The notes beneath the pieces were generated by a model that searched no databases, was not told the DNA's origin, and saw only the letters and a program-made list of their open reading frames with translations. This document shows positions 7,716-33,528 of a stretch of 64,000 nt of DNA, piece after piece. Position 1 is the first letter of the stretch. Every line of letters begins with the position of its first letter. The position numbers and the translations under genes are program-made. Source of the DNA: Escherichia coli O157:H7. GTDB lineage: Bacteria > Pseudomonadota > Gammaproteobacteria > Enterobacterales > Enterobacteriaceae. The DNA lies in assembly GCF_013167455.1 (NCBI RefSeq), contig NZ_CP038328.1; one strand, 5' to 3'.

Positions 7716-8378
7716 TCAAACAAAACCAGCCGCCTTCCGGCGCTCGTATTCCTGTTTCAGTAATTCAATTGGCGTTGGCCCTTGCGGGCACTTCGGCGAT
7801 GCGAGTTGTCTCCGGATCGGGGGAATACTCATCCCGTTACCAACTTGCTTTGCCCATTTCGTCAGTTGCCGTTCTGCAAGTCGTTTTAACTCACCTTCCG
7901 TCATCTGCCGCTCAATCCCTCTGTCACGCATCTCGAGGCAAATGTGGTACAGCACCGGCTGTGGCCACGGGTATTTATCACTCCCGTCGTACCGCCAGGA
8001 TTCATTCCTCCAGCGACGGTACTCCTCCATCACGGCATCCACCGTCAGGCCAAATGGATTTGCCCCGCTCTCCGAAATCAACGCCACAAACTCAGCCAGG
8101 TCCGGAGGCCACGTTTCACCCGCCCGGCAGCGGTCCATGCACTGACGGCAGACCTGCCGGATTTGCTGTTCAGTCATCGCGCCAATCTGAGCAATCCAGA
8201 GCTTCGACGGCGCAGCCCCGTTCTTCTGGGTCCAGCGGTTCGAATACACCTCCCCCATAAGTTCCCACAGCTTCCAGGCCGTTTCCGTTGCTGATAAATC
8301 CGTTTTCACGTTCCCACTGTTCACGTGCTGCCCGAATTTCCTGAACTGCCCGTGATGCGGTGCCACCTGGTGCTGCAT
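7716..8378 (-). CDS. Replication protein P-like (lambda P family helicase loader); start uncertain (8378, 8258 or 8177)
   Basis: Aligns by eye to recalled lambda P: ETWPPDLAEFVALI vs PFLPSPGQFVAWC; YPWPQPVLYHICLEMRDRG vs YPWKSNAHYWLVTNLYQNMR; TEGELKRLAERQL vs TDAELRRKAADEL. Confidence 0.6.
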   Translation of the reverse strand: MQHQVAPHHGQFRKFGQHVNSGNVKTDLSATETAWKLWELMGEVYSNRWTQKNGAAPSKLWIAQIGAMTEQQIRQVCRQCMDRCRAGETWPPDLAEFVALISESGANPFGLTVDAVMEEYRRWRNESWRYDGSDKYPWPQPVLYHICLEMRDRGIERQMTEGELKRLAERQLTKWAKQVGNGMSIPPIRRQLASPKCPQGPTPIELLKQEYERRKAAGFV

Positions 8379-9213
8379 GGCTTACCCCCTTGCTGACTGG
8401 TTTTACCTGTGCCCTGACGTGCTGCACGTGACGGGCAAATTTCTGCTCCCACTGAACCTGCGTGAAAACCTTCCCCTCCGCCATCCAGTAATCCCGGAAT
8501 GCGGCAAGCTCAGCAGGTGTAAACTCAGGCTCAGGCAGAGCCATACCCCACAATGCAGCCCGCTGTCGAAAATCCAGCGACGGCCGCCAGACACCAGTCA
8601 TCGGAAATTTCCCGATCGGTTCGCTCAGGCCATCCGGGTATTCAGGTTCTGCTGTCTGCAACGGCGCGCCATTCGACTCACTGGCTGGAGCACTCTCGCG
8701 CATGCGCGCGTTATGTGTGGGGTTTAATTCTTTATCTGTATCTGTATCTGTCGTGACTTGTCGTGACATATGCGTGACGCGTCGTGACTCATCGTGACAA
8801 TCAGTGTTCTGCTCCCGCAGTCTTTCCCGCTCCCGCTGCGCTCTCTTGCGCTCTGCCGGGGATTTTGCGGTTTGCGAAACATTACCGTTATCCTCCTTCA
8901 TCACCTGGCGTTTTTCCCATCCGGAAATAAGATCGCCATCCAGAACTCGCCCCTGCATTGCATGCAAAATTGAATCAATCACGTCTTCCGTCACATCAAG
9001 CGCACTTGCTAAATCTTCCGTCGTGACATCAATGTGACCACGTAGTGACTCGCCGTGACATTTCGTGACATTTCGTGACGCACTCACCAGAAGGTGGATA
9101 TACACCGCCATCACTGTTGCGATTGGCTGTCCTGAGACCCTGGCAATGGTTCGCCATTTGGGATCATTTGGCATGTCATGCCACAATCTGAGCCAGGCAT
9201 TAGCCATACTCAC
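8170..9213 (-). CDS. Replication initiator / replisome organizer (O-like; DnaT-like C-terminal region)
   Basis: 347 aa; N-terminal WLRLWHDMPNDPKWRTIARVSGQP...ISGWEKRQ resembles the phage replisome-organizer N-domain; contains two iteron clusters. Confidence 0.6.
   Translation of the reverse strand: MSMANAWLRLWHDMPNDPKWRTIARVSGQPIATVMAVYIHLLVSASRNVTKCHGESLRGHIDVTTEDLASALDVTEDVIDSILHAMQGRVLDGDLISGWEKRQVMKEDNGNVSQTAKSPAERKRAQRERERLREQNTDCHDESRRVTHMSRQVTTDTDTDKELNPTHNARMRESAPASESNGAPLQTAEPEYPDGLSEPIGKFPMTGVWRPSLDFRQRAALWGMALPEPEFTPAELAAFRDYWMAEGKVFTQVQWEQKFARHVQHVRAQVKPVSKGVSHAAPGGTASRAVQEIRAAREQWERENGFISNGNGLEAVGTYGGGVFEPLDPEERGCAVEALDCSDWRDD
8751..8797. repeat. Iteron cluster A: 5 copies of (T)CGTGAC, preceded by TCTGTA repeats (putative origin inside O-like gene)
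   Basis: TCGTGACttgTCGTGACatatgCGTGACgcgTCGTGACtcaTCGTGAC read directly. Confidence 0.6.
9019..9080. repeat. Iteron cluster B: 6 GTGAC-containing repeats
   Basis: TCGTGACatcaaTGTGACcacgtaGTGACtcgcCGTGACatttCGTGACatttCGTGAC read directly. Confidence 0.55.
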
Positions 9214-9275
9214 CTCATCTGATACCGAACTTTACCCTCGAACATCCGGAAGAAATCCGGCATGAATATTGTTGG

Positions 9276-9701
9276 TCAATGCACGACAACAGCATTACCA
9301 GGCTGACCCCCACTGTTAGTCAGGGTGCCCCAGGCGATCGCCGCTGCGACAAAATCATCCACATCTTTCACCAGCCGATCCCTCCGTTCGACGATCTCAC
9401 GGTAATATTCAGAGCTGTGACTGCGCATACGGGCCACCAGCAGAGGCGGCATTGCCTTTTCGATCGCCGGTAACAGAGCCTGCATTTTTTCAACAGCATC
9501 AGGGGTGTCTTTATCCAGCCAACGGAAAATTTTCTGGGTATTACGAGCCAGGGCTTCCGGATGGCTGTCGTCGTACAGTTCCGGGAACGTCATCCCCAGT
9601 TCGAAATAAGTCCGGGCTATTTCAGCTGCAGGAACTTTCTCACCATCAGGATATGCCCAGGCATTCATCGCCATGCGGATGTGCTCATGTTTGATTTTCA
9701 T
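9276..9701 (-). CDS. YdaT-like protein (CII-like regulator position)
   Basis: 141 aa beginning MKIKHEHI, as recalled for Rac YdaT; follows the Cro-like gene. Confidence 0.55.
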   Translation of the reverse strand: MKIKHEHIRMAMNAWAYPDGEKVPAAEIARTYFELGMTFPELYDDSHPEALARNTQKIFRWLDKDTPDAVEKMQALLPAIEKAMPPLLVARMRSHSSEYYREIVERRDRLVKDVDDFVAAAIAWGTLTNSGGQPGNAVVVH

Positions 9702-10008
9702 GAATCATTTGCCTCTTGATGCTTCGGGTATGATCGTTTTCGTCATTTGGTTGCTTCATCGACATATTCTGCGAATAACATGACGAGCGTCGTAAGTATG
9801 TCCAATCAACATCAGGACGAAGTTCTTCACACAGGACACCACCTTTTGTTGCTCGTTCAATCGCAGGACATCTCTCAGCAGGCAACTGACGTACACCTTT
9901 GATCCATTGATTTACGCTTGGAGGAGATACACCTAAAAGCCTAGCCATTGCTGATTGCCCACCGACAACAGCACAAGCTCGTTTGAATGAATAGTTATCT
10001 TTTTTCAT
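9685..10008 (-). CDS. Cro-like HTH regulator (YdaS-like)
   Basis: MKKDNYSFKRACAVVGGQSAMARLLGVSPPSVNQWIKGVRQLPAERCPAIERATKGGVLCEELRPD; divergent from the repressor gene. Confidence 0.7.
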   Translation of the reverse strand: MKKDNYSFKRACAVVGGQSAMARLLGVSPPSVNQWIKGVRQLPAERCPAIERATKGGVLCEELRPDVDWTYLRRSSCYSQNMSMKQPNDENDHTRSIKRQMIHENQT

Positions 10009-10038
10009 CGAATGAACTCCAAAAAACACACAATAATA

Positions 10039-10104
10039 TTAGGCTTAGCCTAATGCAATTGTCAATAGGCTATGCCTAACGCTTCGAGAGTAGGTATTGC
10101 CTAA
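10039..10104. promoter_or_regulatory. Right operator region: three TTAGGC-N3-GCCTAA-type dyads between divergent cro-like and repressor genes
   Basis: TTAGGCttaGCCTAA (10039-10053), ATAGGCtatGCCTAA (10065-10079), TAGGTattGCCTAA (10090-10104). Confidence 0.6.
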
Positions 10105-10132
10105 TGCGATGCGCATAGGAGACTATTAAGCA

Positions 10133-10609
10133 ATGCTTAGTGGTAAAGACTTAGGCCGAGCGATAGAGCAGGCCATTAACAAAAAAATTGCATCAGGAGC
10201 CGTCAAATCAAAGGCGGAAATCGCACGTCATTTCAAAGTCCAACCACCATCAATCCATGACTGGATTAAGAAAGGTTCGATAAGTAAAGACAAACTTCCA
10301 GAACTATGGCGTTTCTTTTCTGATGTGGTTGGTCCAGAGCATTGGGGGCTTAACGAATACCCCATACCAACCCCATCCACTTCAGATACAAAAAGTGAAC
10401 TTTTAGACATAAACAGCCTTTATCAAGCCGCCTCTGATGAAAAAAGAGCAATTGTGGCTTTCCTCTTATCTGGAAATGCTACGGAGCCTAGTTGGGTTGA
10501 TCATGACGTTCGTGCCTACATTGCCGCAATGGAAATGAAGGTAGCTAACTATCTGAAAAATCAAGAATCAAAACGGAAAAGCCAGAACATCACCAAGACA
10601 GGAACTTAA
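10133..10609 (+). CDS. Prophage repressor, RacR-like (N-terminal XRE-type HTH, no S24 peptidase domain)
   Basis: 158 aa; HTH segment SKAEIARHFKVQPPSIHDWIKKG; same length and divergent arrangement as Rac RacR with ydaS/ydaT. Confidence 0.65.
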   Translation: MLSGKDLGRAIEQAINKKIASGAVKSKAEIARHFKVQPPSIHDWIKKGSISKDKLPELWRFFSDVVGPEHWGLNEYPIPTPSTSDTKSELLDINSLYQAASDEKRAIVAFLLSGNATEPSWVDHDVRAYIAAMEMKVANYLKNQESKRKSQNITKTGT

Positions 10610-10682
10610 ACTTATATGGTCCGACGGGAAATTCCTAGTTCCCGTTAGTTAACTCCTACTACCTCTCCCACAAACCATCACC

Positions 10683-10745
10683 TATTAGGTCGCACCCAAA
10701 TCATTAGGCGTAGCCTATTGACAAGCAATTAGGCATTTCCTATAG
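10683..10745 (+). promoter_or_regulatory. Left operator / pL-like promoter (TTGACA, 17 nt, TATAGT) overlapped by operator half-sites
   Basis: TTGACA at 10716-10721 and TATAGT at 10739-10744 with 17-nt spacer; dyads TTAGGCgtaGCCTAT (10702-10716) and TTAGGCattTCCTAT (10727-10741). Confidence 0.6.
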
Positions 10746-10846
10746 TTTTCCCATACCAACCCATCCCGTCCCACACAATACAGGGCAATACCTAGAGTTA
10801 CCCGGCAGTGGTCAGGGATTAAGTAGCCAGCCCGAGGCGTAAGAAC

Positions 10847-11077
10847 ATGACGGCAGGGTTCAACTTTAACTATGCAGCAGGTTTTTGTTCCGCTACCCCG
10901 GCGTTAAGGGGATATGAGGTCAGCATGGATACTCTTGATCTTGGCAACAACGAATCTCTGGTGTGCGGCGTGTTTCCCAACCAGGACGGCACGTTCACCG
11001 CGATGACGTATACCAAAAGCAAAACGTTTAAAACCGAATCTGGCGCGCGTCGCTGGTTAGCAAGAAACTCTGACTAA
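10847..11077 (+). CDS. Small early-left operon protein (YdaF/YdaG-like?; start may be 10925)
   Basis: ORF-track frame; GAGG-type ribosome-binding sites precede both candidate starts; first gene downstream of the pL-like promoter. Confidence 0.45.
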   Translation: MTAGFNFNYAAGFCSATPALRGYEVSMDTLDLGNNESLVCGVFPNQDGTFTAMTYTKSKTFKTESGARRWLARNSD

Positions 11078-11191
11078 TGAAATCTGGTAATTAAGGAATC
11101 CTCCACGGGGGGAGAGTGGTGCACACGCGCCGGACACAAGCAAGCATCCGGCATGCTCTTTAACAATCTGGATATCCATAACAGTAAAAAT

Positions 11192-11683
11192 CTACAGATT
11201 GCCGTTCAGTTTTCTGGCCAACTCTTCAATAGATGGAGGTGATACGTAATCCGGATTTTTATTCATAAGAAACTGATTTTCACAGTACAGGCACCTGCTT
11301 TTATGAAAAAATTCATATTCTCTAACCGGGAATGGCTGAAGTATCGATACTATCTTTTGTCCAAAACATTTTGGACAAAGATGCATGATTATGCTGCCGC
11401 CGTTCACGGTTACCTCCTTCGAGTACACAAAAGTTCCCGACTCAAGTTGGCTAAGGATATAACCTTCCGTCTGAGCCTCAAAGTTTTCAAATTCTGCAAT
11501 TTTAGCTTTGAGAGAAGCATTTATTTCTTGATAAGTGCCCACCAGCTCAACGAGAGACACGCATTCGCGCTGAATAGATGCAAGCTTTGAGTTCAGTTCA
11601 CCAATAGCCGCATTTACTTCAGCTTGAGTTTTTGCCTCGTTCATTAGTTTTGCAATCTGGGCGGTTTCACGAATAGCCGTCAT
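11192..11683 (-). CDS. Unknown 163-aa protein: N-terminal coiled coil, C-terminal CxxC...CxxC zinc-ribbon-like motif; counter-oriented within early-left operon
   Basis: MTAIRETAQIAKLMNEAKTQAEVNAAIGELNSKLASIQRE...HLCPKCFGQKIV...HKSRCLYCENQF...; start at 11683 avoids overlap with the exonuclease gene; flanked by 13-bp inverted repeats. Confidence 0.5.
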   Translation of the reverse strand: MTAIRETAQIAKLMNEAKTQAEVNAAIGELNSKLASIQRECVSLVELVGTYQEINASLKAKIAEFENFEAQTEGYILSQLESGTFVYSKEVTVNGGSIIMHLCPKCFGQKIVSILQPFPVREYEFFHKSRCLYCENQFLMNKNPDYVSPPSIEELARKLNGNL

Positions 11684-11884
11684 TGCTGCCGTTAATTCAG
11701 CGATCACATTCAATACTCTTATTGTTGTTGGGGATATCCAGATTAACAAGATCCTTGTTGTTGGGGAATAACGGGGACCACCTCGCCTGACGTGGTAAAA
11801 AGCAGGCACACAACACGAAAGCACACGGCGAGGGACACCATTAAATGGTGGCTTAAGCAATCACGCGAAGCGCAATCTGCCATT

Positions 11885-12229
11885 ATGACCGATGAAATCC
11901 CGTTAGATGATGCACTGTTACAATTGCGGGAATTTATCGACGAAAACTCCGGTGAATTTTTTGTTCAGGTCTGGGGAAATGGAGCCAACTTCGACAACAC
12001 GATTTTGCGCCGTTCATACGAACGGCAGGGGATCCCCTGCCCGTGGCGTTACTACAACGATCGCGATGTACGCACAATCGTTGAGCTGGGGAAAGCCATA
12101 GACTTCGATGCCAGAACGGCTATTCCATTCGAAGGTGAGCGCCATAATGCACTTGATGACGCCCGTTACCAGGCAAAATACGTTTCAGTTATCTGGCAAA
12201 AACTGATCCCGAGTCAGGCTGATTTTTAA
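11885..12229 (+). CDS. DEDDh (DnaQ-like) 3'-5' exonuclease
   Basis: VWGNGANFDNTILRR...GERHNALDDARYQAKY resembles DEDD-family exonuclease motifs; start taken at MTDEIPLDD. Confidence 0.6.
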   Translation: MTDEIPLDDALLQLREFIDENSGEFFVQVWGNGANFDNTILRRSYERQGIPCPWRYYNDRDVRTIVELGKAIDFDARTAIPFEGERHNALDDARYQAKYVSVIWQKLIPSQADF

Positions 12230-12290
12230 TGTTCAACCGTCGCCAGTTGTCGTTGATATTCTGCAACTGGCGCGTTCCGGAGTGATAGCC

Positions 12291-12560
12291 ATGAGCGAAC
12301 AGTACCTGATAACGCTCGACGAGTGGAAACCAAAACGGTTCAGTCTCCCAATAACAAACACTACCCTGGTGAAATACGGAAAACTAGGATACATCGTTCC
12401 AAGACCACAAAAAATTCGTGGGCGTTGGCTGATAGATCGCCGAGCAGTATTTGTTGGGCCTGGTGAAACGGGAATTGCGCCGGAAATTCATACTGGCGAT
12501 GATGATGCACTGAAGGAGATTTTAACTCATGTCACCGAGGCCACGAAAAAACAGCACTGA
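12291..12560 (+). CDS. xis: Excisionase (lambda Xis-like)
   Basis: MSEQYLITLDEWKPKRFS...PRPQKIRGRWLIDRRAV parallels recalled lambda Xis (MYLTLQEWNARQRRPRS...); overlaps int start. Confidence 0.7.
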   Translation: MSEQYLITLDEWKPKRFSLPITNTTLVKYGKLGYIVPRPQKIRGRWLIDRRAVFVGPGETGIAPEIHTGDDDALKEILTHVTEATKKQH

Positions 12561-13647
12561 CGTAGCCGGTCTTTACGAAAAGTTTGATCGCAGAACTGGC
12601 AGAGTTTACTACCAGTATAAAAATCCTGTGACTGGAAAATTTCACGGACTCGGAACAGACAAAGGTAAGGCAGAAAAAATCGCTTCCACAGCCAATCAGC
12701 GAATAGCTGCAGCAGAAGCTGAATATTTCATGCGCAAAATTGATGAAAGTCCGTCAGCAACAAAACGTCGGGGTATCAGATTAAAGGCATGGGTTGATCG
12801 ATATCTGAAAATACAGGACACGCGACTGAAAAATGGAGATATTGCAGCTACAACTCACAAAGAAAAAACTCGAATGGCTGCATACCTGGTTTCCCGTCTG
12901 GGAAACCACCCATTGAAAGAACTGGAAGTAAGAGACTTTGCATTAATACTGGATGAGTGGCTGGATAAAGACATGGTCAGTACAGCGAGAGTAAATCGTG
13001 GATTATGGGTTGATATTTATAAAGAAGCACAGCATGCAGGGGAAGTTCCTCCTGGATGGAATCCTCCGGAGGCTACCCGTAAACCGATCCCTAAAGTAAC
13101 CAGAGCCAGGCTCACCATGGAAGACTGGCAAAAAATTTACAATGCAACGCCTGAAAAACACTTTATCCGTAACGCAATGCTTCTTGCGATTGTTACTGGT
13201 CAGCGCCGTGATGACATTTGCCACATGCGTTTTTCAGATGTGTGGAACGAACACTTGCATATCACCCAGGGAAAAACCGGAATGCGTCTGGCGTTACCGC
13301 TTACACTACGCTGTGATGCCATTGGGATAACGTTAAAAGAAGTTATTGATGGGTGCCGAGACAGAATATTAAGTCCATATCTAATCCATAGTCGGCACCA
13401 GAAACAACCGAAGCCGATGAGTAAAGACAACCTGAGCGACTACTTTGCCAAAGCACGGGATCTGGCTGGGGTAATTCCACCAGCAGGAAAAACTCCGCCA
13501 ACATTTCATGAACAACGCTCTCTATCAGAACGGCTGTACCGTGCACAGGGTATCGATACAAAAACATTACTAGGACATAAAGTCCAGGCAACCACCGATC
13601 GCTATAACGATACTCGAGGTCAGGAATGGGTTAAGTTGGTTATTTGA
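12529..13647 (+). CDS. int: Tyrosine integrase (lambda Int family)
   Basis: 372 aa; N-terminal GRVYYQYKNPVTGKFHGLG vs recalled lambda GYYCYRDPRTGKEFGLG; catalytic-region TGQRRDDICHMRFSD, LLGHK, DRYNDTRGQEW. Confidence 0.9.
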   Translation: MSPRPRKNSTDVAGLYEKFDRRTGRVYYQYKNPVTGKFHGLGTDKGKAEKIASTANQRIAAAEAEYFMRKIDESPSATKRRGIRLKAWVDRYLKIQDTRLKNGDIAATTHKEKTRMAAYLVSRLGNHPLKELEVRDFALILDEWLDKDMVSTARVNRGLWVDIYKEAQHAGEVPPGWNPPEATRKPIPKVTRARLTMEDWQKIYNATPEKHFIRNAMLLAIVTGQRRDDICHMRFSDVWNEHLHITQGKTGMRLALPLTLRCDAIGITLKEVIDGCRDRILSPYLIHSRHQKQPKPMSKDNLSDYFAKARDLAGVIPPAGKTPPTFHEQRSLSERLYRAQGIDTKTLLGHKVQATTDRYNDTRGQEWVKLVI

Positions 13648-13697
13648 CAAACACCATATGGAATATCCGTCACCATCTCAGGAAAAAAGTGTTGTAA

Positions 13698-13817
13698 AAT
13701 GCGTGGCCTAGTTTTGGGGAAACGTTTTGGAGAGATTTTGGAGAAAGGAAAAAATTGAATAAATTCAAAATCCTGAAAGTGTCCCGCCTTATGAATAAAA
13801 AGGTGGAACTCGAATGA
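13698..13817 (+). other. Prophage-host junction: arm-type direct repeats TTTTGGAGA x2 and probable att core reconstituting the potB 3' end (stop overlaps potC ATG)
   Basis: Open frame ends TGA overlapping ATG of potC at 13814; TTTTGGAGAgaTTTTGGAGAaa at 13725-13748; no full potB upstream. Confidence 0.4.
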
Positions 13818-14608
13818 TCGGTCGACTGCTTCGCGGCGGTTTTATGACCGCTATCTACGCGTACCTGTATATCCCAATCATTATTTTGATTGTGAACTCC
13901 TTTAACAGCTCGCGCTTTGGCATCAACTGGCAGGGTTTTACCACCAAATGGTATAGCCTGCTGATGAACAACGACAGCCTGTTACAGGCAGCGCAGCATT
14001 CACTAACAATGGCGGTGTTTTCGGCGACGTTTGCTACGCTTATCGGTTCACTGACGGCAGTTGCGCTGTACCGTTATCGCTTTCGTGGTAAGCCGTTCGT
14101 TAGCGGAATGCTGTTTGTGGTGATGATGTCACCAGATATCGTGATGGCGATTTCGCTGCTGGTGCTGTTTATGCTGCTGGGTATTCAGCTTGGCTTCTGG
14201 TCGCTGCTGTTCTCGCATATCACCTTCTGCCTGCCATTTGTGGTGGTGACGGTGTATTCGCGCCTGAAAGGTTTTGACGTGCGGATGCTGGAAGCGGCGA
14301 AAGATCTCGGTGCCAGCGAATTTACCATTCTGCGAAAAATCATTCTGCCACTGGCAATGCCAGCGGTGGCGGCAGGCTGGGTGTTAAGCTTTACCCTGTC
14401 GATGGACGATGTGGTGGTTTCTTCGTTCGTCACCGGGCCGAGTTATGAAATTCTGCCGTTAAAAATTTATTCGATGGTCAAAGTCGGCGTATCGCCGGAA
14501 GTTAACGCGCTGGCAACCATATTACTGGTGCTGTCGCTGGTGATGGTTATTGCCAGCCAGCTTATTGCTCGTGATAAAACGAAAGGTAACACAGGGGACG
14601 TTAAATGA
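13814..14608 (+). CDS. potC: Spermidine/putrescine ABC transporter permease PotC
   Basis: 264-aa polytopic membrane protein; recognised as PotC. Confidence 0.95.
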   Translation: MIGRLLRGGFMTAIYAYLYIPIIILIVNSFNSSRFGINWQGFTTKWYSLLMNNDSLLQAAQHSLTMAVFSATFATLIGSLTAVALYRYRFRGKPFVSGMLFVVMMSPDIVMAISLLVLFMLLGIQLGFWSLLFSHITFCLPFVVVTVYSRLKGFDVRMLEAAKDLGASEFTILRKIILPLAMPAVAAGWVLSFTLSMDDVVVSSFVTGPSYEILPLKIYSMVKVGVSPEVNALATILLVLSLVMVIASQLIARDKTKGNTGDVK

Positions 14609-15651
14609 AAAAATGGTCACGCCACCTGCTCGCGGCGGGTGCTCTGGCACTGGGCATGAGCGCCGCTCACGCCGATGACAACAACACGCTGTATTTCTAC
14701 AACTGGACCGAGTACGTGCCGCCAGGACTGCTTGAACAGTTCACCAAAGAAACCGGTATTAAGGTTATCTATTCGACTTACGAGTCGAACGAAACCATGT
14801 ATGCCAAGCTGAAAACGTACAAAGACGGTGCCTATGACCTGGTGGTTCCTTCAACCTATTACGTCGATAAAATGCGTAAAGAAGGGATGATCCAGAAGAT
14901 CGACAAGTCGAAGTTAACGAACTTCAGCAATCTCGATCCAGACATGCTCAATAAGCCGTTTGACCCGAATAACGATTACTCCATTCCGTATATCTGGGGT
15001 GCGACGGCGATTGGCGTTAACGGTGATGCGGTGGATCCGAAATCTGTCACCAGCTGGGCCGATTTGTGGAAGCCTGAGTACAAAGGCAGCCTGCTGCTGA
15101 CCGACGATGCCCGTGAAGTGTTCCAGATGGCGCTACGTAAGCTGGGCTACTCCGGTAACACCACCGATCCGAAAGAGATTGAAGCTGCATATAACGAGCT
15201 GAAAAAACTGATGCCAAACGTCGCAGCGTTTAACTCCGATAACCCGGCTAACCCGTACATGGAAGGCGAAGTTAACCTCGGCATGATCTGGAACGGTTCT
15301 GCTTTCGTTGCACGCCAGGCGGGTACGCCTATTGACGTGGTGTGGCCGAAAGAAGGCGGCATATTCTGGATGGACAGCCTGGCGATCCCGGCAAATGCCA
15401 AAAACAAAGAAGGCGCGCTGAAATTGATCAACTTCCTGCTGCGCCCGGATGTGGCAAAACAGGTTGCTGAAACTATCGGTTATCCAACGCCAAACCTTGC
15501 GGCGCGTAAGCTGTTAAGTCCAGAAGTGGCGAACGATAAGACGCTCTCCCCGGATGCTGAAACCATTAAAAATGGCGAATGGCAGAATGACGTTGGCGCA
15601 GCCAGCAGCATTTATGAAGAGTATTATCAGAAGCTGAAAGCAGGACGTTAA
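14605..15651 (+). CDS. potD: Spermidine/putrescine periplasmic binding protein PotD
   Basis: 348 aa with signal peptide; recognised as PotD. Confidence 0.95.
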   Translation: MKKWSRHLLAAGALALGMSAAHADDNNTLYFYNWTEYVPPGLLEQFTKETGIKVIYSTYESNETMYAKLKTYKDGAYDLVVPSTYYVDKMRKEGMIQKIDKSKLTNFSNLDPDMLNKPFDPNNDYSIPYIWGATAIGVNGDAVDPKSVTSWADLWKPEYKGSLLLTDDAREVFQMALRKLGYSGNTTDPKEIEAAYNELKKLMPNVAAFNSDNPANPYMEGEVNLGMIWNGSAFVARQAGTPIDVVWPKEGGIFWMDSLAIPANAKNKEGALKLINFLLRPDVAKQVAETIGYPTPNLAARKLLSPEVANDKTLSPDAETIKNGEWQNDVGAASSIYEEYYQKLKAGR

Positions 15652-22056: not shown

Positions 22057-22183
22057 GCCATCGCCCCAGCCGGGGCGATTCAATTTGCTAAACCATGTCG
22101 ATTACGGATAATGAACAGCATTGCTTATCAGAGATATGCCCCCATATGTTGAGGCATATCCTAACGAGAATCTGACAACCGTT

Positions 22184-31045: not shown

Positions 31046-32886
<1,841 letters not shown>

Positions 32887-32906
<20 letters not shown>

Positions 32907-33528
32907 CTTTACCTGACCAGATAATTTCGCCCGTCTGCACCAGCATCAGCTGCATTTGTAGGGTCGGAGCGTTAACGTTGCCAGAGGCGCTGGAGTACAG
33001 CACGTAATGAGCGCCGACATTGCGGGCAATGCCTATGGCTTTACTACGGGTGCCTAAACTATCCTGCGGCGACAAACCTAACTGTTGCTTAGCCATCGAC
33101 AGCTGCTGGGCGGAAACCAGGGTAAATTTCCCGTTATTAGCCAGCGCATTTCGCAGCGTTTCGGTCGCTTCTGCGGCATTCAGCGAACCGTTAGTACGGT
33201 TGTTAACGCTATCAACCAGCAGGACGCTACCCGCAGTCACCCCGTCAGCCCCAAGCATCTTACTGACCATCGGCTGCATTGCGCCATTCCAGTCATAATG
33301 GCGAATATGCGGCGCAGGCGGTGCAGTTTGATCTTCGTGCTCAATTGGGCCTGGCTGCTGCGGGATCGTCGGCACCGAGGGCACTGTGGGGACAGGCTGT
33401 TGTGGCTCGGCTGGTTGTTCCGGCGCTGGTTTCACTTCTTCTACCGGTGCAGGTTCACGTTGCCCCACACACCCGGCGAGAAACATCGCCAGCGCGGTAA
33501 TCAAGGCGTAGCGACTCATTTTTGTCAT
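32887..33528 (-). CDS. lpoB: Penicillin-binding protein activator LpoB
   Basis: Lipoprotein signal (LAGC) and proline-rich linker; start at MTKMSRY. Confidence 0.9.

Follow-up and report, generated by a model that had tools for sequence, protein, structure and literature searches.

The stretch of DNA analysed here (64 kb in full, hereafter the window) corresponds to the Escherichia coli O157:H7 Sakai prophage Sp6, integrated at potC, and not to Rac. The locus is the immunity control region of this defective prophage, which maintains lysogeny and is built on the repressor RacR. The gene racR is divergent from a ydaS-ydaT pair, with inverted repeats of the published (T/A)TAGGC-n3-GCCTA(T/A) type in between (Table 1); the sites, promoters, conservation and domain content described here are read directly from the sequence. 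Against the NCBIfam RacR equivalog NF049929, the repressor scores 246.8 bits (E 8.8e-74, residues 1-145 covered), above the curated cut-off of 200 bits. It is 92% identical to K-12 RacR, and RefSeq annotates its gene as racR, which together bear out its description as "Rac-type" in a sequence-only reading of this DNA. All the features listed in that reading were found where it had placed them, and its interpretation is essentially correct, though most of it had been published before.

Table 1. Genes, promoters and operator dyads of the Sp6 immunity region (window coordinates; mismatches are to TTAGGC-N3-GCCTAA unless stated).
Feature	Position	Strand	Description
ydaT-like gene, CII analogue	9276-9701	-	141 aa; Pfam YdaT_toxin PF06254, 3.5e-10; PHROG 163, CII-like transcriptional activator, 3e-47
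YdaT box (predicted)	9691-9708	-	ATGATT-N6-AATCAA, spans ydaT start codon; 1 mismatch to TTGATT-N6-AATCAA
ydaS-like gene, Cro analogue	9685-10008	-	107 aa; Pfam YdaS_toxin PF15943, 5e-30; P22_Cro, 1.4e-8
PR-type promoter of ydaS-ydaT	10036-10065	-	TTGACA (10065-10060)-18-TAATAT (10041-10036), faces the cro-like gene
Operator O1	10039-10053		TTAGGCTTAGCCTAA, perfect dyad, 0 mismatches; in PR spacer, overlaps its -10; corresponds to a published K-12 operator (PMC9638921)
Operator O2	10065-10079		ATAGGCTATGCCTAA, 1 mismatch; abuts PR -35; kept in all clades
Operator O3	10090-10104		GTAGGTATTGCCTAA, 2 mismatches; weaker extra dyad, Rac clade only
Operator over racR ATG	10126-10140		TTAAGCAATGCTTAG, 3 mismatches; is the operator published for K-12 at the racR start codon (PMC9638921)
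racR	10133-10609	+	158-aa repressor; N-terminal HTH domain, non-peptidase helical C-terminal domain
Weak dyad	10151-10165		3 mismatches
Weak third downstream dyad	10685-10699		TTAGGTCGCACCCAA, 3 mismatches; 19 bp ahead of operator A
Downstream operator A (OL-type, predicted)	10704-10718		TTAGGCGTAGCCTAT, 1 mismatch; last base is first T of -35
PL-type promoter (predicted)	10718-10746	+	TTGACA (10718-10723)-17-TATAGT (10741-10746), directed away from racR
Downstream operator B (predicted)	10729-10743		TTAGGCATTTCCTAT, 2 mismatches; in promoter spacer, overlaps -10
Candidate Rho-loading site	10750-10789	+	Start of leader; C-rich, G-poor (18 C, 4 G)
DUF1391/YdaF-like gene	10925-11077	+	First gene past promoter; 50 aa; RefSeq; PHROG 751, 2.5e-36
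Opposite-strand gene	11192-11707	-	171 codons; between promoter and xis
Excisionase (xis)	12291-12560	+	RefSeq; PHROG excisionase, 4.6e-26
Integrase (int)	12529-13647	+	RefSeq; PHROG integrase, 1.5e-67; same strand as downstream promoter; followed by potC

The AlphaFold model of RacR, of moderate confidence (pLDDT 66), is all-helical, the C-terminal region included. A Foldseek comparison of this model with the PDB gave no significant match (best E 0.24), and its best superpositions, over about 70 residues, are with XRE/Cro-CI HTH domains including that of lambda cI, in weak agreement only. Searching solved structures with the RacR sequence returned no match, and PHROGs has no family for it.

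The dyad motif TTAGGC-N3-GCCTAA was scanned through the window with up to 2 or 3 mismatches and compared with shuffled sequence. Six dyads have at most 2 mismatches, five of them inside 705 bp, against 2.1 per 64 kb in the shuffles; at this rate about 0.024 are expected per 720 bp, giving a Poisson P(≥5) of about 6e-11. The sixth, a lone 2-mismatch dyad at 22150, fits chance, and the remaining 45 kb of Sp6 contain no other dyad at this threshold. At 3 mismatches there is no overall enrichment (22 observed, 22 expected), so that only good matches are informative. Dyad-to-dyad spacings are 26, 25 and 25 bp. All three dyads that the earlier reading had placed between the divergent genes are present, but the 124-bp racR-ydaS intergenic region actually holds four (at 10039, 10065, 10090 and 10126), the weaker additional one lying over the racR ATG. 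Three weaker dyads with 3 mismatches each (10126-10140, 10151-10165 and 10685-10699) had been overlooked in that reading.

The individual upstream dyads differ in their conservation. O3 is missing at its position in KpF5-like clades, its left half-site varies among strains, and the copy in the window is one base off both K-12 and Sakai. The ATG-overlapping dyad keeps its -7 position in every other clade, Betaproteobacteria among them, and fits the motif better there, with 1-2 mismatches. The intergenic region aligns to K-12 nearly base for base, with few changes in the ydaS promoter region, and the experimentally mapped K-12 PydaST has hexamers and spacing identical to those of the Sp6 PR (PMC11879457). 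K-12 RacR binds the upstream dyads in EMSA and ChIP (PMC5700373) and in DNase I footprinting (PMC9638921), and represses ydaS, including in reporter assays (PMC5700373, PMC9638921). The proposal that the upstream dyads are repressor operators matches these data and the published consensus; by analogy with the K-12 orthologue, the sole one with experiments, RacR would be expected to bind them and repress ydaS in Sp6 as well.

The placing of the YdaS/YdaT-like pair in the cro/cII position is upheld by the profile matches of both proteins (Table 1). Sp6 YdaS is 85% identical to K-12 YdaS, but YdaT is of the CP-933P type, near-identical to the crystallised CP-933P protein (PDB 8bt1, E 8.7e-80) and only 31% identical to K-12 YdaT. 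YdaS and RacR have in common the HTH core AR..V.PPS..WIK (E 5e-6). The predicted YdaT box on the minus strand equals the K-12 reference box ATGATT-n6-AATCAA (PMC11879457) and is presumably functional in Sp6. Together with the CII-like PHROG match, this box points to the lambdoid arrangement of a CII-type activator with its own box downstream of cro; a divergent repressor/cro pair with operators over PR and the repressor promoter, likewise lambdoid, is present. The analogy with Cro is incomplete, since repression of racR by YdaS was reportedly not seen in K-12 (PMC9638921).

RacR has no match to Pfam S24 (PF00717) and falls outside the autocleavable LexA/CI class, which is defined by a C-terminal S24 domain with a Ser-Lys dyad and an Ala-Gly cleavage site, though in the same profile run eight relatives sharing its N-terminal domain match Peptidase_S24 at E values of up to 4.4e-25. 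The earlier description of a repressor with an HTH and without S24 therefore stands. Because it has no S24 autopeptidase, RacR would not be inactivated by RecA-stimulated self-cleavage upon DNA damage. This expectation, also part of the sequence-only reading, agrees with published work on Sp6, in which the repressor lacks a peptidase domain, the prophage excises spontaneously and its circles are less abundant with mitomycin C than without, with no induction (PMC2669165).

An indirect SOS route, through a LexA-controlled antirepressor that inactivates RacR, is highly improbable. Antirepressors are commonly paired with non-cleavable repressors, and in Gifsy-type and 186-type prophages a LexA-controlled antirepressor does inactivate the repressor. 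Sakai Sp6 indeed carries two "phage antirepressor" annotations (ECs_1533 and ECs_1557), both outside the window. However, neither the 20-mer LexA consensus with 3 mismatches nor the exact CTGT-N8-ACAG core occurs in the window, and the exact core is also missing from the 45 kb of Sp6 that were scanned. There, a search with relaxed criteria yielded only two weak one-mismatch matches in the effector region, far from the antirepressor genes, and the lower number of Sp6 circles after mitomycin C also argues against this route (PMC2669165).

The only part of the switch that is apparently undescribed is a second operator-promoter unit downstream of racR; we found no description of it in the literature, although an older account of a Rac PL/OL could exist. 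As the earlier reading had noted, dyads at 10704 and 10729 overlap a near-consensus promoter here, TTGACA-17-TATAGT, which matches the consensus at 11 of 12 positions and is the sole promoter-like match in 10600-13800. The two dyads are 25 bp apart and mirror the ydaS promoter, with one dyad at -35 and one over -10. Both promoters are mirror-image copies of one cassette, in which one dyad abuts the -35 and another fills the spacer and overlaps the -10. The downstream dyads depart from the motif at 1 and 2 positions, and the promoter hexamers constrain their right half-sites; their affinity may therefore be low. The weak dyad at 10685-10699 has 2 mismatches in many Rac-clade relatives and is off the 25-bp register; its function is uncertain. 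Judged from its sequence, the unit is most likely the equivalent of PL/OL and probably controls the excision genes, a second operator set over an outward, same-strand promoter downstream of the repressor being a further lambdoid trait.

Comparative evidence for this downstream site, and with it for the OR/OL-like layout proposed earlier, is strong. A protein similarity search identified 124 RacR-family loci, and the module is present in all 117 that have sufficient downstream DNA, the seven without it being five truncated contigs and two Pseudomonas phages; in these phage relatives, no downstream pair is found under the TTAGGC-N3-GCCTAA motif. It begins anywhere between 61 bp and 5.1 kb past the stop codon, with flanks that are non-homologous between clades, and in the KpF5 clade it sits after an inserted gene and an intrinsic terminator. 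Across 54 distinct sequences, there is hardly any change in the half-sites, the -35 or the final T of the -10, whereas the 3-nt dyad centres and a 4-nt linker vary. Almost every locus has operators A and B 25 bp apart, a few betaproteobacterial loci having 24-26 bp. A search of the genomes of 100,044 species for the composite signature TTAGGC-N3-GCCTATTGACA gave just 16 stretches, 12 of which adjoin a RacR-type HTH repressor with the identical two-sided layout. In Betaproteobacteria, too, the module lies beside RacR-type HTH repressors, many of them with an S24 domain.

This pattern of variation makes it scarcely credible that the palindromes are RNA or DNA hairpins, such as terminators or processing sites, instead of protein operators. 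A terminator scan did flag O1 on the minus strand (7-bp stem with a T-rich tail), with a similar match in KpF5. The half-sites are, however, invariant and without compensatory changes, only the 3-nt centre varying, and, with the predicted transcription starts lying past the dyads, each promoter would leave its own dyads largely untranscribed. Folded as RNA, the racR 3' flank (10600-10700) does not outperform shuffled sequence (z = -0.93), which also leaves no evidence that an intrinsic terminator separates racR from the downstream promoter. An Rfam search of 9000-13800 at a permissive threshold found no known RNA, and K-12 RacR binds these repeats.

In Sp6, ydaG, sieB, kilR and recET are absent or truncated, which leaves about 1.5 kb between the downstream promoter and xis-int. 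From 10746 to 12291, the plus strand has no predicted intrinsic terminator, and none of the ORFs from the promoter to xis was recognised as N-like. By C minus G, the C-rich start of the leader is among the highest 0.2% of 40-nt windows, and it is kept in K-12; this composition suggests a role in Rho loading. Given possible Rho-dependent termination and the 171-codon opposite-strand gene, transcripts from the promoter may not reach xis-int.

Expression data from K-12 bear on whether this promoter is active. When racR transcription is lowered, ydaG, ydaF, kilR, ydaE and racC rise 40-70-fold while racR mRNA falls (PMC6765115), a combination that calls for a separate promoter past racR, itself under RacR repression. 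The published account of kil silencing in Rac invokes no such promoter, but Rho/NusG termination of transcription through racR, with a Rho-dependent terminator inside racR and read-through when NusG is lowered (PMC4150792, PMC5793797). Extended to Sp6, where the leader is rut-like, this would mean that read-through from the racR promoters is the sole source of expression for the genes beyond racR and that the downstream "promoter" is a non-functional look-alike created by the operator sequence. We consider this very unlikely, since the K-12 changes are the opposite of what read-through predicts (PMC6765115) and the TTGACA and last T of the -10 are kept in every clade independently of the dyads, which argues against a look-alike. 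In the KpF5 clade, moreover, read-through would be halted by an intrinsic terminator just ahead of the module. Both models can hold at once, Rho then trimming the basal transcripts that start at the downstream promoter.

It is very likely, in our assessment, that the Sp6 switch works through RacR bound at both the upstream and the downstream dyads, shutting both outward promoters including that of xis-int. RacR dimers would bind (T/A)TAGGC-N3-GCCTA(T/A) dyads at two places flanking racR. O1 and O2 would occlude the strong ydaS-ydaT promoter, and O3 and the ATG dyad, lying over the racR promoters and start codon, would provide autoregulation of racR. The two dyads downstream would occlude the second strong outward promoter, which is predicted to transcribe a remnant early-left operon comprising the ydaF-like gene, an exonuclease remnant, xis and int. 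With mirrored cassettes on either side, a single repressor could shut both outward promoters from its own gene between them. YdaS may act as a Cro-like competitor at RacR sites, and YdaT as a CII-like activator at the box in the ydaS/ydaT junction, while derepression would be spontaneous or caused by some trigger other than DNA damage. Three steps are inferred: that RacR binds the downstream dyads, that it represses the promoter there and that it controls xis-int.

The downstream dyads could alternatively serve mainly YdaS, or competition between RacR and YdaS, and thereby time early-left transcription after derepression instead of maintaining lysogeny. This is a real possibility, although on balance a doubtful one. 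The HTH core common to the two proteins speaks for it, as do reports that K-12 RacR and YdaS compete for the same operators and that YdaS, not YdaT, promotes excision (PMC11014345), and that YdaS and the repressor PaaR2 of CP-933P footprint identical repeats (PMC8630535). However, use by YdaS is compatible with RacR binding at the same dyads, given that lambda CI and Cro both use OL. The downstream dyads also belong to the sequence class that RacR footprints upstream, and the module goes with the RacR-type N-terminal domain, also in proteins that have another C-terminal domain.

Sp6 is of ordinary lambdoid design, and the downstream unit is a modest addition to a known system. The closest relative is K-12 Rac, which has the orthologous repressor (92%), the same dyad consensus, O1-O3 and ATG sites, the TTGACA-18-TAATAT ydaS promoter and YdaS (85%), and which likewise has the dyad pair and promoter downstream (K-12 locus L002, 3630-3669). 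It differs in its location at ttcA instead of potC, in YdaT (31%) and in possessing ydaG, sieB, kilR and recET. The PaaR2/YdaS/YdaT region of CP-933P (EDL933) has the same gene layout and a near-identical YdaT, and PaaR2 also has no peptidase motif and is unresponsive to mitomycin C; its authors noted that a PL promoter with repeats follows the repressor operon (PMC8630535). In contrast to Sp6, its repressor belongs to another family and is associated with four 18-bp palindromes with the half-site consensus GTTTAGTAA, and a paaA2-parE2 toxin-antitoxin pair lies behind the repressor gene.

Lambda resembles Sp6 in its divergent repressor and cro, in dyads about 25 bp apart over PR and the repressor promoter, in a second operator set over an outward, same-strand promoter past the repressor leading to xis-int, and in a CII-type activator. 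Unlike in lambda, there are two strong downstream dyads instead of three, RacR has no S24 domain, no N/nut system was identified in Sp6 among the ORFs between the downstream promoter and xis or by Rfam in 9000-13800, and there is no significant sequence similarity, the match to the lambda cI N-terminal fold being weak (E about 1.6). The operator sets are 0.65 kb apart in Sp6 and 2.3 kb apart in lambda. Oligomerisation of RacR to an octamer is a further lambda-like trait (PMC11014345).

Work on RacR in K-12 has been intensive and has dealt with its essentiality, its role in excision and its cross-talk with the controllers of restriction-modification systems; the regulon continues to be called uncharacterised. 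A conserved RacR-controlled downstream promoter would offer a simple explanation for three observations: the rise of early-left genes (ydaG, ydaF, kilR and others) as RacR falls, the excision of Rac that loss of RacR drives (PMC11014345), and the octameric state of RacR, for which four upstream dyads would already supply eight subunits. O157:H7 Sp6 carries type III effector genes and is itself transferable to K-12, so that silencing of xis-int bears on the mobility of virulence genes.

More tentatively, and at somewhat less than an even chance, the RacR-type HTH, its TTAGGC-N3-GCCTAA operators and the two-sided promoter cassette may form an ancient portable module of temperate phages of Enterobacterales and Betaproteobacteria, in which the C-terminal domain has been swapped between an SOS-cleavable S24 peptidase and non-cleavable oligomerisation domains. 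In this proposal, the RacR octamer would bridge both sites, looping out the 0.65-kb gene, and the downstream promoter would be a direct route from RacR loss to xis-int excision. If true, it would explain the so far unexplained link between the two in Rac and Sp6. Repressors combining a RacR-type N-terminus with S24 are found in IMG/VR L124, the Pseudomonas phages D14H and VW-6S, and Achromobacter, Herbaspirillum and Azoarcus prophages. They have the same HTH domain, with P39, S40, W44, G48, K52 and K54 invariant, and the enterobacterial and betaproteobacterial members have the same dyads and two-sided cassette, whereas the Pseudomonas phages have diverged dyads and no detected downstream pair. 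Peptidase_S24 is present in 8 of 19 aligned members (best E 4.4e-25) and is unrelated to the helical C-terminal domain of RacR; these relatives are consequently expected to be SOS-cleavable. With one DNA-binding domain and its operators joined to cleavable or non-cleavable C-termini, the family offers a natural experiment on how the mode of induction evolves at fixed immunity specificity.

Many E. coli O157:H7 chromosomes carry the 2 kb around the switch at 100% identity, and RefSeq labels the genes there as racR, a YdaT-family gene, an HTH gene and a DUF1391 gene. The annotation surrounds the switch with an excisionase, an exonuclease remnant and replication genes, a lambdoid prophage context, and the integrase gene abuts potC. 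Bases 1-10413 of the window match the Sakai prophage Sp6 at 99.95%, and potC/potB is the insertion site of Sp6 (PMC8190617). The Sakai Sp6 counterparts of the three switch genes are ECs_1506 (phage repressor), ECs_1507 (ydaS) and ECs_1508.

As the sequence-only reading had proposed, the repressor is of the Rac type: the 158-aa product clears the NCBIfam RacR equivalog (246.8 bits, cut-off 200) and is 92% identical to RacR of Rac, the cryptic prophage of K-12. The YdaS/YdaT-like pair that it had assigned to the cro and cII positions is likewise borne out. The cro-position product matches Pfam YdaS_toxin (5e-30) and P22_Cro (1.4e-8), is 85% identical to K-12 YdaS and has an HTH core in common with RacR, while the cII-position product matches YdaT_toxin and the PHROG family "CII-like transcriptional activator". 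This YdaT shares just 31% identity with that of K-12 but is nearly identical to YdaT of CP-933P, a prophage of O157:H7 EDL933; the CP-933P protein has been crystallised (PDB 8bt1). With RacR and YdaS of Rac type and YdaT of CP-933P type, the switch region (9276-10008) is thus mosaic; the recombination joint falls at the ydaS/ydaT overlap. The YdaT box of Sp6 agrees with the K-12 reference box (PMC11879457), and taken with a nearby TATGAT hexamer it is a candidate for a PRE-like promoter that YdaT would activate and that would read back across ydaS in the direction of racR.

Features of the RacR switch and its surroundings, in window positions
Feature	Position	Strand	Remark
YdaT box	9691-9708	-	ATGATT-N6-AATCAA; covers ydaT start codon
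TATGAT hexamer	9729-9734	+	20 nt beyond YdaT box
ydaS-side promoter	10065-10036	-	TTGACA-18-TAATAT; faces cro-like gene
Dyad O1	10039-10053		perfect match to TTAGGC-N3-GCCTAA
Dyad O2	10065-10079		1 mismatch
Dyad O3	10090-10104		2 mismatches
Weaker dyad	10126-10140		over racR ATG
Weaker dyad	10151-10165		inside racR
Weaker dyad	10685-10699		
Downstream dyad A	10704-10718		1 mismatch
Downstream dyad B	10729-10743		2 mismatches
Downstream promoter	10718-10746		TTGACA-17-TATAGT; 11/12 score
26-nt inverted repeat	10059-10084, 10699-10724		88%
13-nt direct repeat	10361-10373, 10750-10762		CCCATACCAACCC, exact; inside racR, start of predicted downstream leader
C-rich leader	10750-10789		~40 nt past downstream promoter; 18 C, 4 G
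171-aa gene (PHROG 1244)	11192-11707	-	antisense inside predicted downstream operon
Integrase gene	12529-13647		abuts potC; annotation
potC	13814 onward		annotation
Isolated dyad	22150-22164		TGAGGCATATCCTAA, 2 mismatches

Both operator groups claimed earlier, three dyads between the divergent genes and related dyads overlapping a near-consensus promoter downstream of the repressor gene, lie where they had been placed, and three weaker dyads had been overlooked. The dyads are spaced by 26, 25 and 25 bp. At up to two mismatches the whole window holds six dyads (2.1 expected per 64 kb), five of them at the switch, with no enrichment at three mismatches. The sixth, in the chromosomal part of the window and with no partner site, is consistent with chance, about two per 64 kb being expected. 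The downstream promoter is the only promoter-like match in a promoter scan of 10600-13800. A 26-nt inverted repeat connects the two sides of racR, so that each -35 element and its adjoining dyad mirrors the other. For the left half-site of O3 (10090-10095) the window has GTAGGT, Sakai has GTAGGC and most IMG/VR loci have GTAGGG. Its sixth base differs between O157 prophages that are nearly identical elsewhere and is the only operator position to drift, as might be expected of an autoregulatory site that is deliberately weak.

The upstream half of this arrangement is the orthologue of a characterised system. In K-12 Rac, three GCCTAA/TTAGGC repeats were described in the 123-bp racR-ydaS intergenic region, where RacR gave three EMSA complexes, ChIP enrichment and repression of a ydaS reporter (PMC5700373). 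DNase I footprints gave (T/A)TAGGC-n3-GCCTA(T/A) as the consensus and placed one operator across the start codon of racR (PMC9638921); a later summary counts four inverted repeats between the genes, and RacR was shown to be an octamer in purified form (PMC9638921, PMC11014345). The ydaS promoter has been mapped to TTGACA-18-TAATAT (PMC11879457), and the intergenic region of K-12 aligns with that of Sp6 at nearly every base. The core of the switch is orthologous to a system already in print; the prophage that carries it here is another one, itself annotated before.

For the downstream half, the RacR papers, the kilR papers and a motif search yielded no description of RacR sites or a promoter 3' of racR, the older literature being incompletely covered. 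The RacR regulon and the ydaFG operon have been stated to be uncharacterised (PMC11014345), and CP-933P offers a precedent for the layout, with a PL and repeats noted downstream of its repressor operon (PMC8630535). K-12 Rac likewise carries the two downstream dyads and the promoter. Among RacR-family loci, gathered solely through similarity of the protein (from the window, K-12, 120 IMG/VR contigs and four phages), 117 of 124 have the downstream pair; of the other seven, two belong to Pseudomonas phages, whose operators have diverged, and five are on contigs that stop short of where the pair would be expected. The pair follows the repressor stop codon at 95-97 bp in Rac-clade loci, at 108-157 bp in another clade of about 61% identity, at 787 bp in locus L124, at ~1.4 kb in the clade of Klebsiella phage KpF5 and at 2.6 kb in locus L115, and the flanks are unrelated from clade to clade. 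Between the repressor gene and the downstream operators the KpF5 clade has an inserted DUF450 gene and an intrinsic terminator (L083 2978-4372), in the slot of rexAB in lambda and of paaA2-parE2 in CP-933P; locus L115 has a larger insert there, of 2.6 kb.

The core conserved over 54 distinct sequences reads ATTAGGCnnnGCCTA-TTGACA-nnnn-ATTAGGCnnnnCCTAnnnT. Near-invariant in it are the half-sites, the -35 and the T that ends the -10; the dyad centers, linker and flanks vary. The same cassette forms the ydaS-side promoter in every clade. This pattern has the signature expected of a protein-bound promoter; it and an RNA fold control both contradict the alternative that the palindromes act as hairpins. 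Expression of the downstream genes purely by read-through from racR is contradicted by the conserved -35 and -10 and by the terminator that precedes the downstream module in KpF5. Moreover, when racR transcription was lowered in K-12, ydaG, ydaF, kilR, ydaE and racC rose 40-70-fold while racR mRNA fell (PMC6765115), opposite behavior that requires an independent, RacR-repressed promoter 3' of racR. The observation is real and its interpretation supported; the downstream cassette of operators and promoter, with its conservation, and the swapping of domains described below are modest additions that follow the lambdoid paradigm.

RacR dimers on O1 and O2 would occlude the ydaS-ydaT promoter, and O3 with the ATG dyad would autoregulate racR, both as shown for the K-12 orthologue; RacR on the two downstream dyads would similarly occlude the second promoter. 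YdaS presumably competes with RacR at both operator sets, and a role of the downstream dyads centred on YdaS would go together with RacR repression rather than exclude it. More speculatively, a RacR octamer could bridge the two sets, whose centers lie ~640-690 bp apart, by analogy with CI bridging OR and OL in lambda. Of the early-left operon, Sp6 keeps only a YdaF-like gene, a gene of unknown function on the opposite strand, the exonuclease remnant, xis and int, and no intrinsic terminator was predicted between the downstream promoter and xis-int. Derepression should hence feed straight into excision, consistent with the Rac excision caused by RacR loss (PMC11014345).

Silencing of kil has been ascribed to Rho/NusG termination of transcription through racR (PMC4150792, PMC5793797). 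The leader past the downstream promoter, in the top 0.2% of 40-nt windows for its C-rich composition, is a candidate Rho-loading site that could reconcile this promoter with such silencing; its composition is kept in K-12 (21 C, 7 G) and not in KpF5-like clades. The direct repeat shared by racR and this leader may be chance. The 171-aa gene, with CxxC...CxxC near its C terminus, sits where K-12 Rac has sieB; it may be a moron or exclusion gene and would transcribe convergently with the predicted downstream promoter.

Pfam finds no S24 match in RacR, in agreement with the earlier claim of a repressor without autopeptidase, and the repressors of Sp4, Sp6, Sp9 and Sp10 have been noted to lack a peptidase domain (Asadulghani et al., PMC2669165). 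An AlphaFold model (pLDDT 66) is free of beta structure: five helices make up the N-terminal part, residues 74-91 form a disordered linker, and three more helices follow at the C-terminal end. A fold search with the model gave no significant match. In a 19-member family alignment the N-terminal 73 residues are well conserved and eight members carry Peptidase_S24 (best E 4.4e-25), including L124, with the same operators on both sides, and Pseudomonas phage D14H; the RacR-type members lack it. Fusions of the RacR-type N-terminal HTH to Peptidase_S24 (L124, L128, L142, L134, L139, L127; L085, L086) come from an IMG/VR enterobacterial-type locus, several Betaproteobacteria and Pseudomonas phages, and in L138 (Burkholderia) and L135 the C-terminal domain is short and of another kind. 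Apart from the Pseudomonas phages, all retain TTAGGC-N3-GCCTAA operators, so that operator specificity is unusually conserved across bacterial classes.

The expectation that Sp6 is not SOS-induced by repressor self-cleavage accords with published data: Sp6 circles are seen uninduced and are fewer after mitomycin C, and Sp6 was classed as spontaneously inducible and is transferable to K-12 (PMC2669165). Sakai Sp6 has two "phage antirepressor" genes outside the window, ECs_1533 and ECs_1557 (14317-14886 and 31553-33208 of the Sp6 sequence, L126), the latter adjoining a divergent small regulator, ECs_1556. An antirepressor-mediated SOS route conflicts with the mitomycin results, and searches of the window and of Sp6 gave no canonical LexA box, and none near ECs_1533 or ECs_1557.

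The composite signature TTAGGC-N3-GCCTATTGACA, scanned in one genome per species, gave 16 matching stretches among 100,044 species; this sample was chosen by signature and so does not measure frequency, whereas association with the repressor domain was not selected for. Twelve adjoin a gene with a RacR-type N-terminal domain. Dyads precede that gene, in most cases with one covering the ATG at -7, and paired dyads with a promoter follow it at a distance of 61 bp to 5.1 kb. They include Erwinia, Mixta and Morganella and the Betaproteobacteria Achromobacter, Burkholderia, Herbaspirillum and Azoarcus. Two further stretches hold the dyad pair, the repressor gene not being within the stretch available, and two with single sites look like chance. 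Two short contigs (L133, L136) in metagenome bins labelled Candidatus Nanosynbacter and Lachnospiraceae, with racR regions 92% and 100% identical to E. coli, are almost certainly binning contamination by Escherichia prophage DNA.
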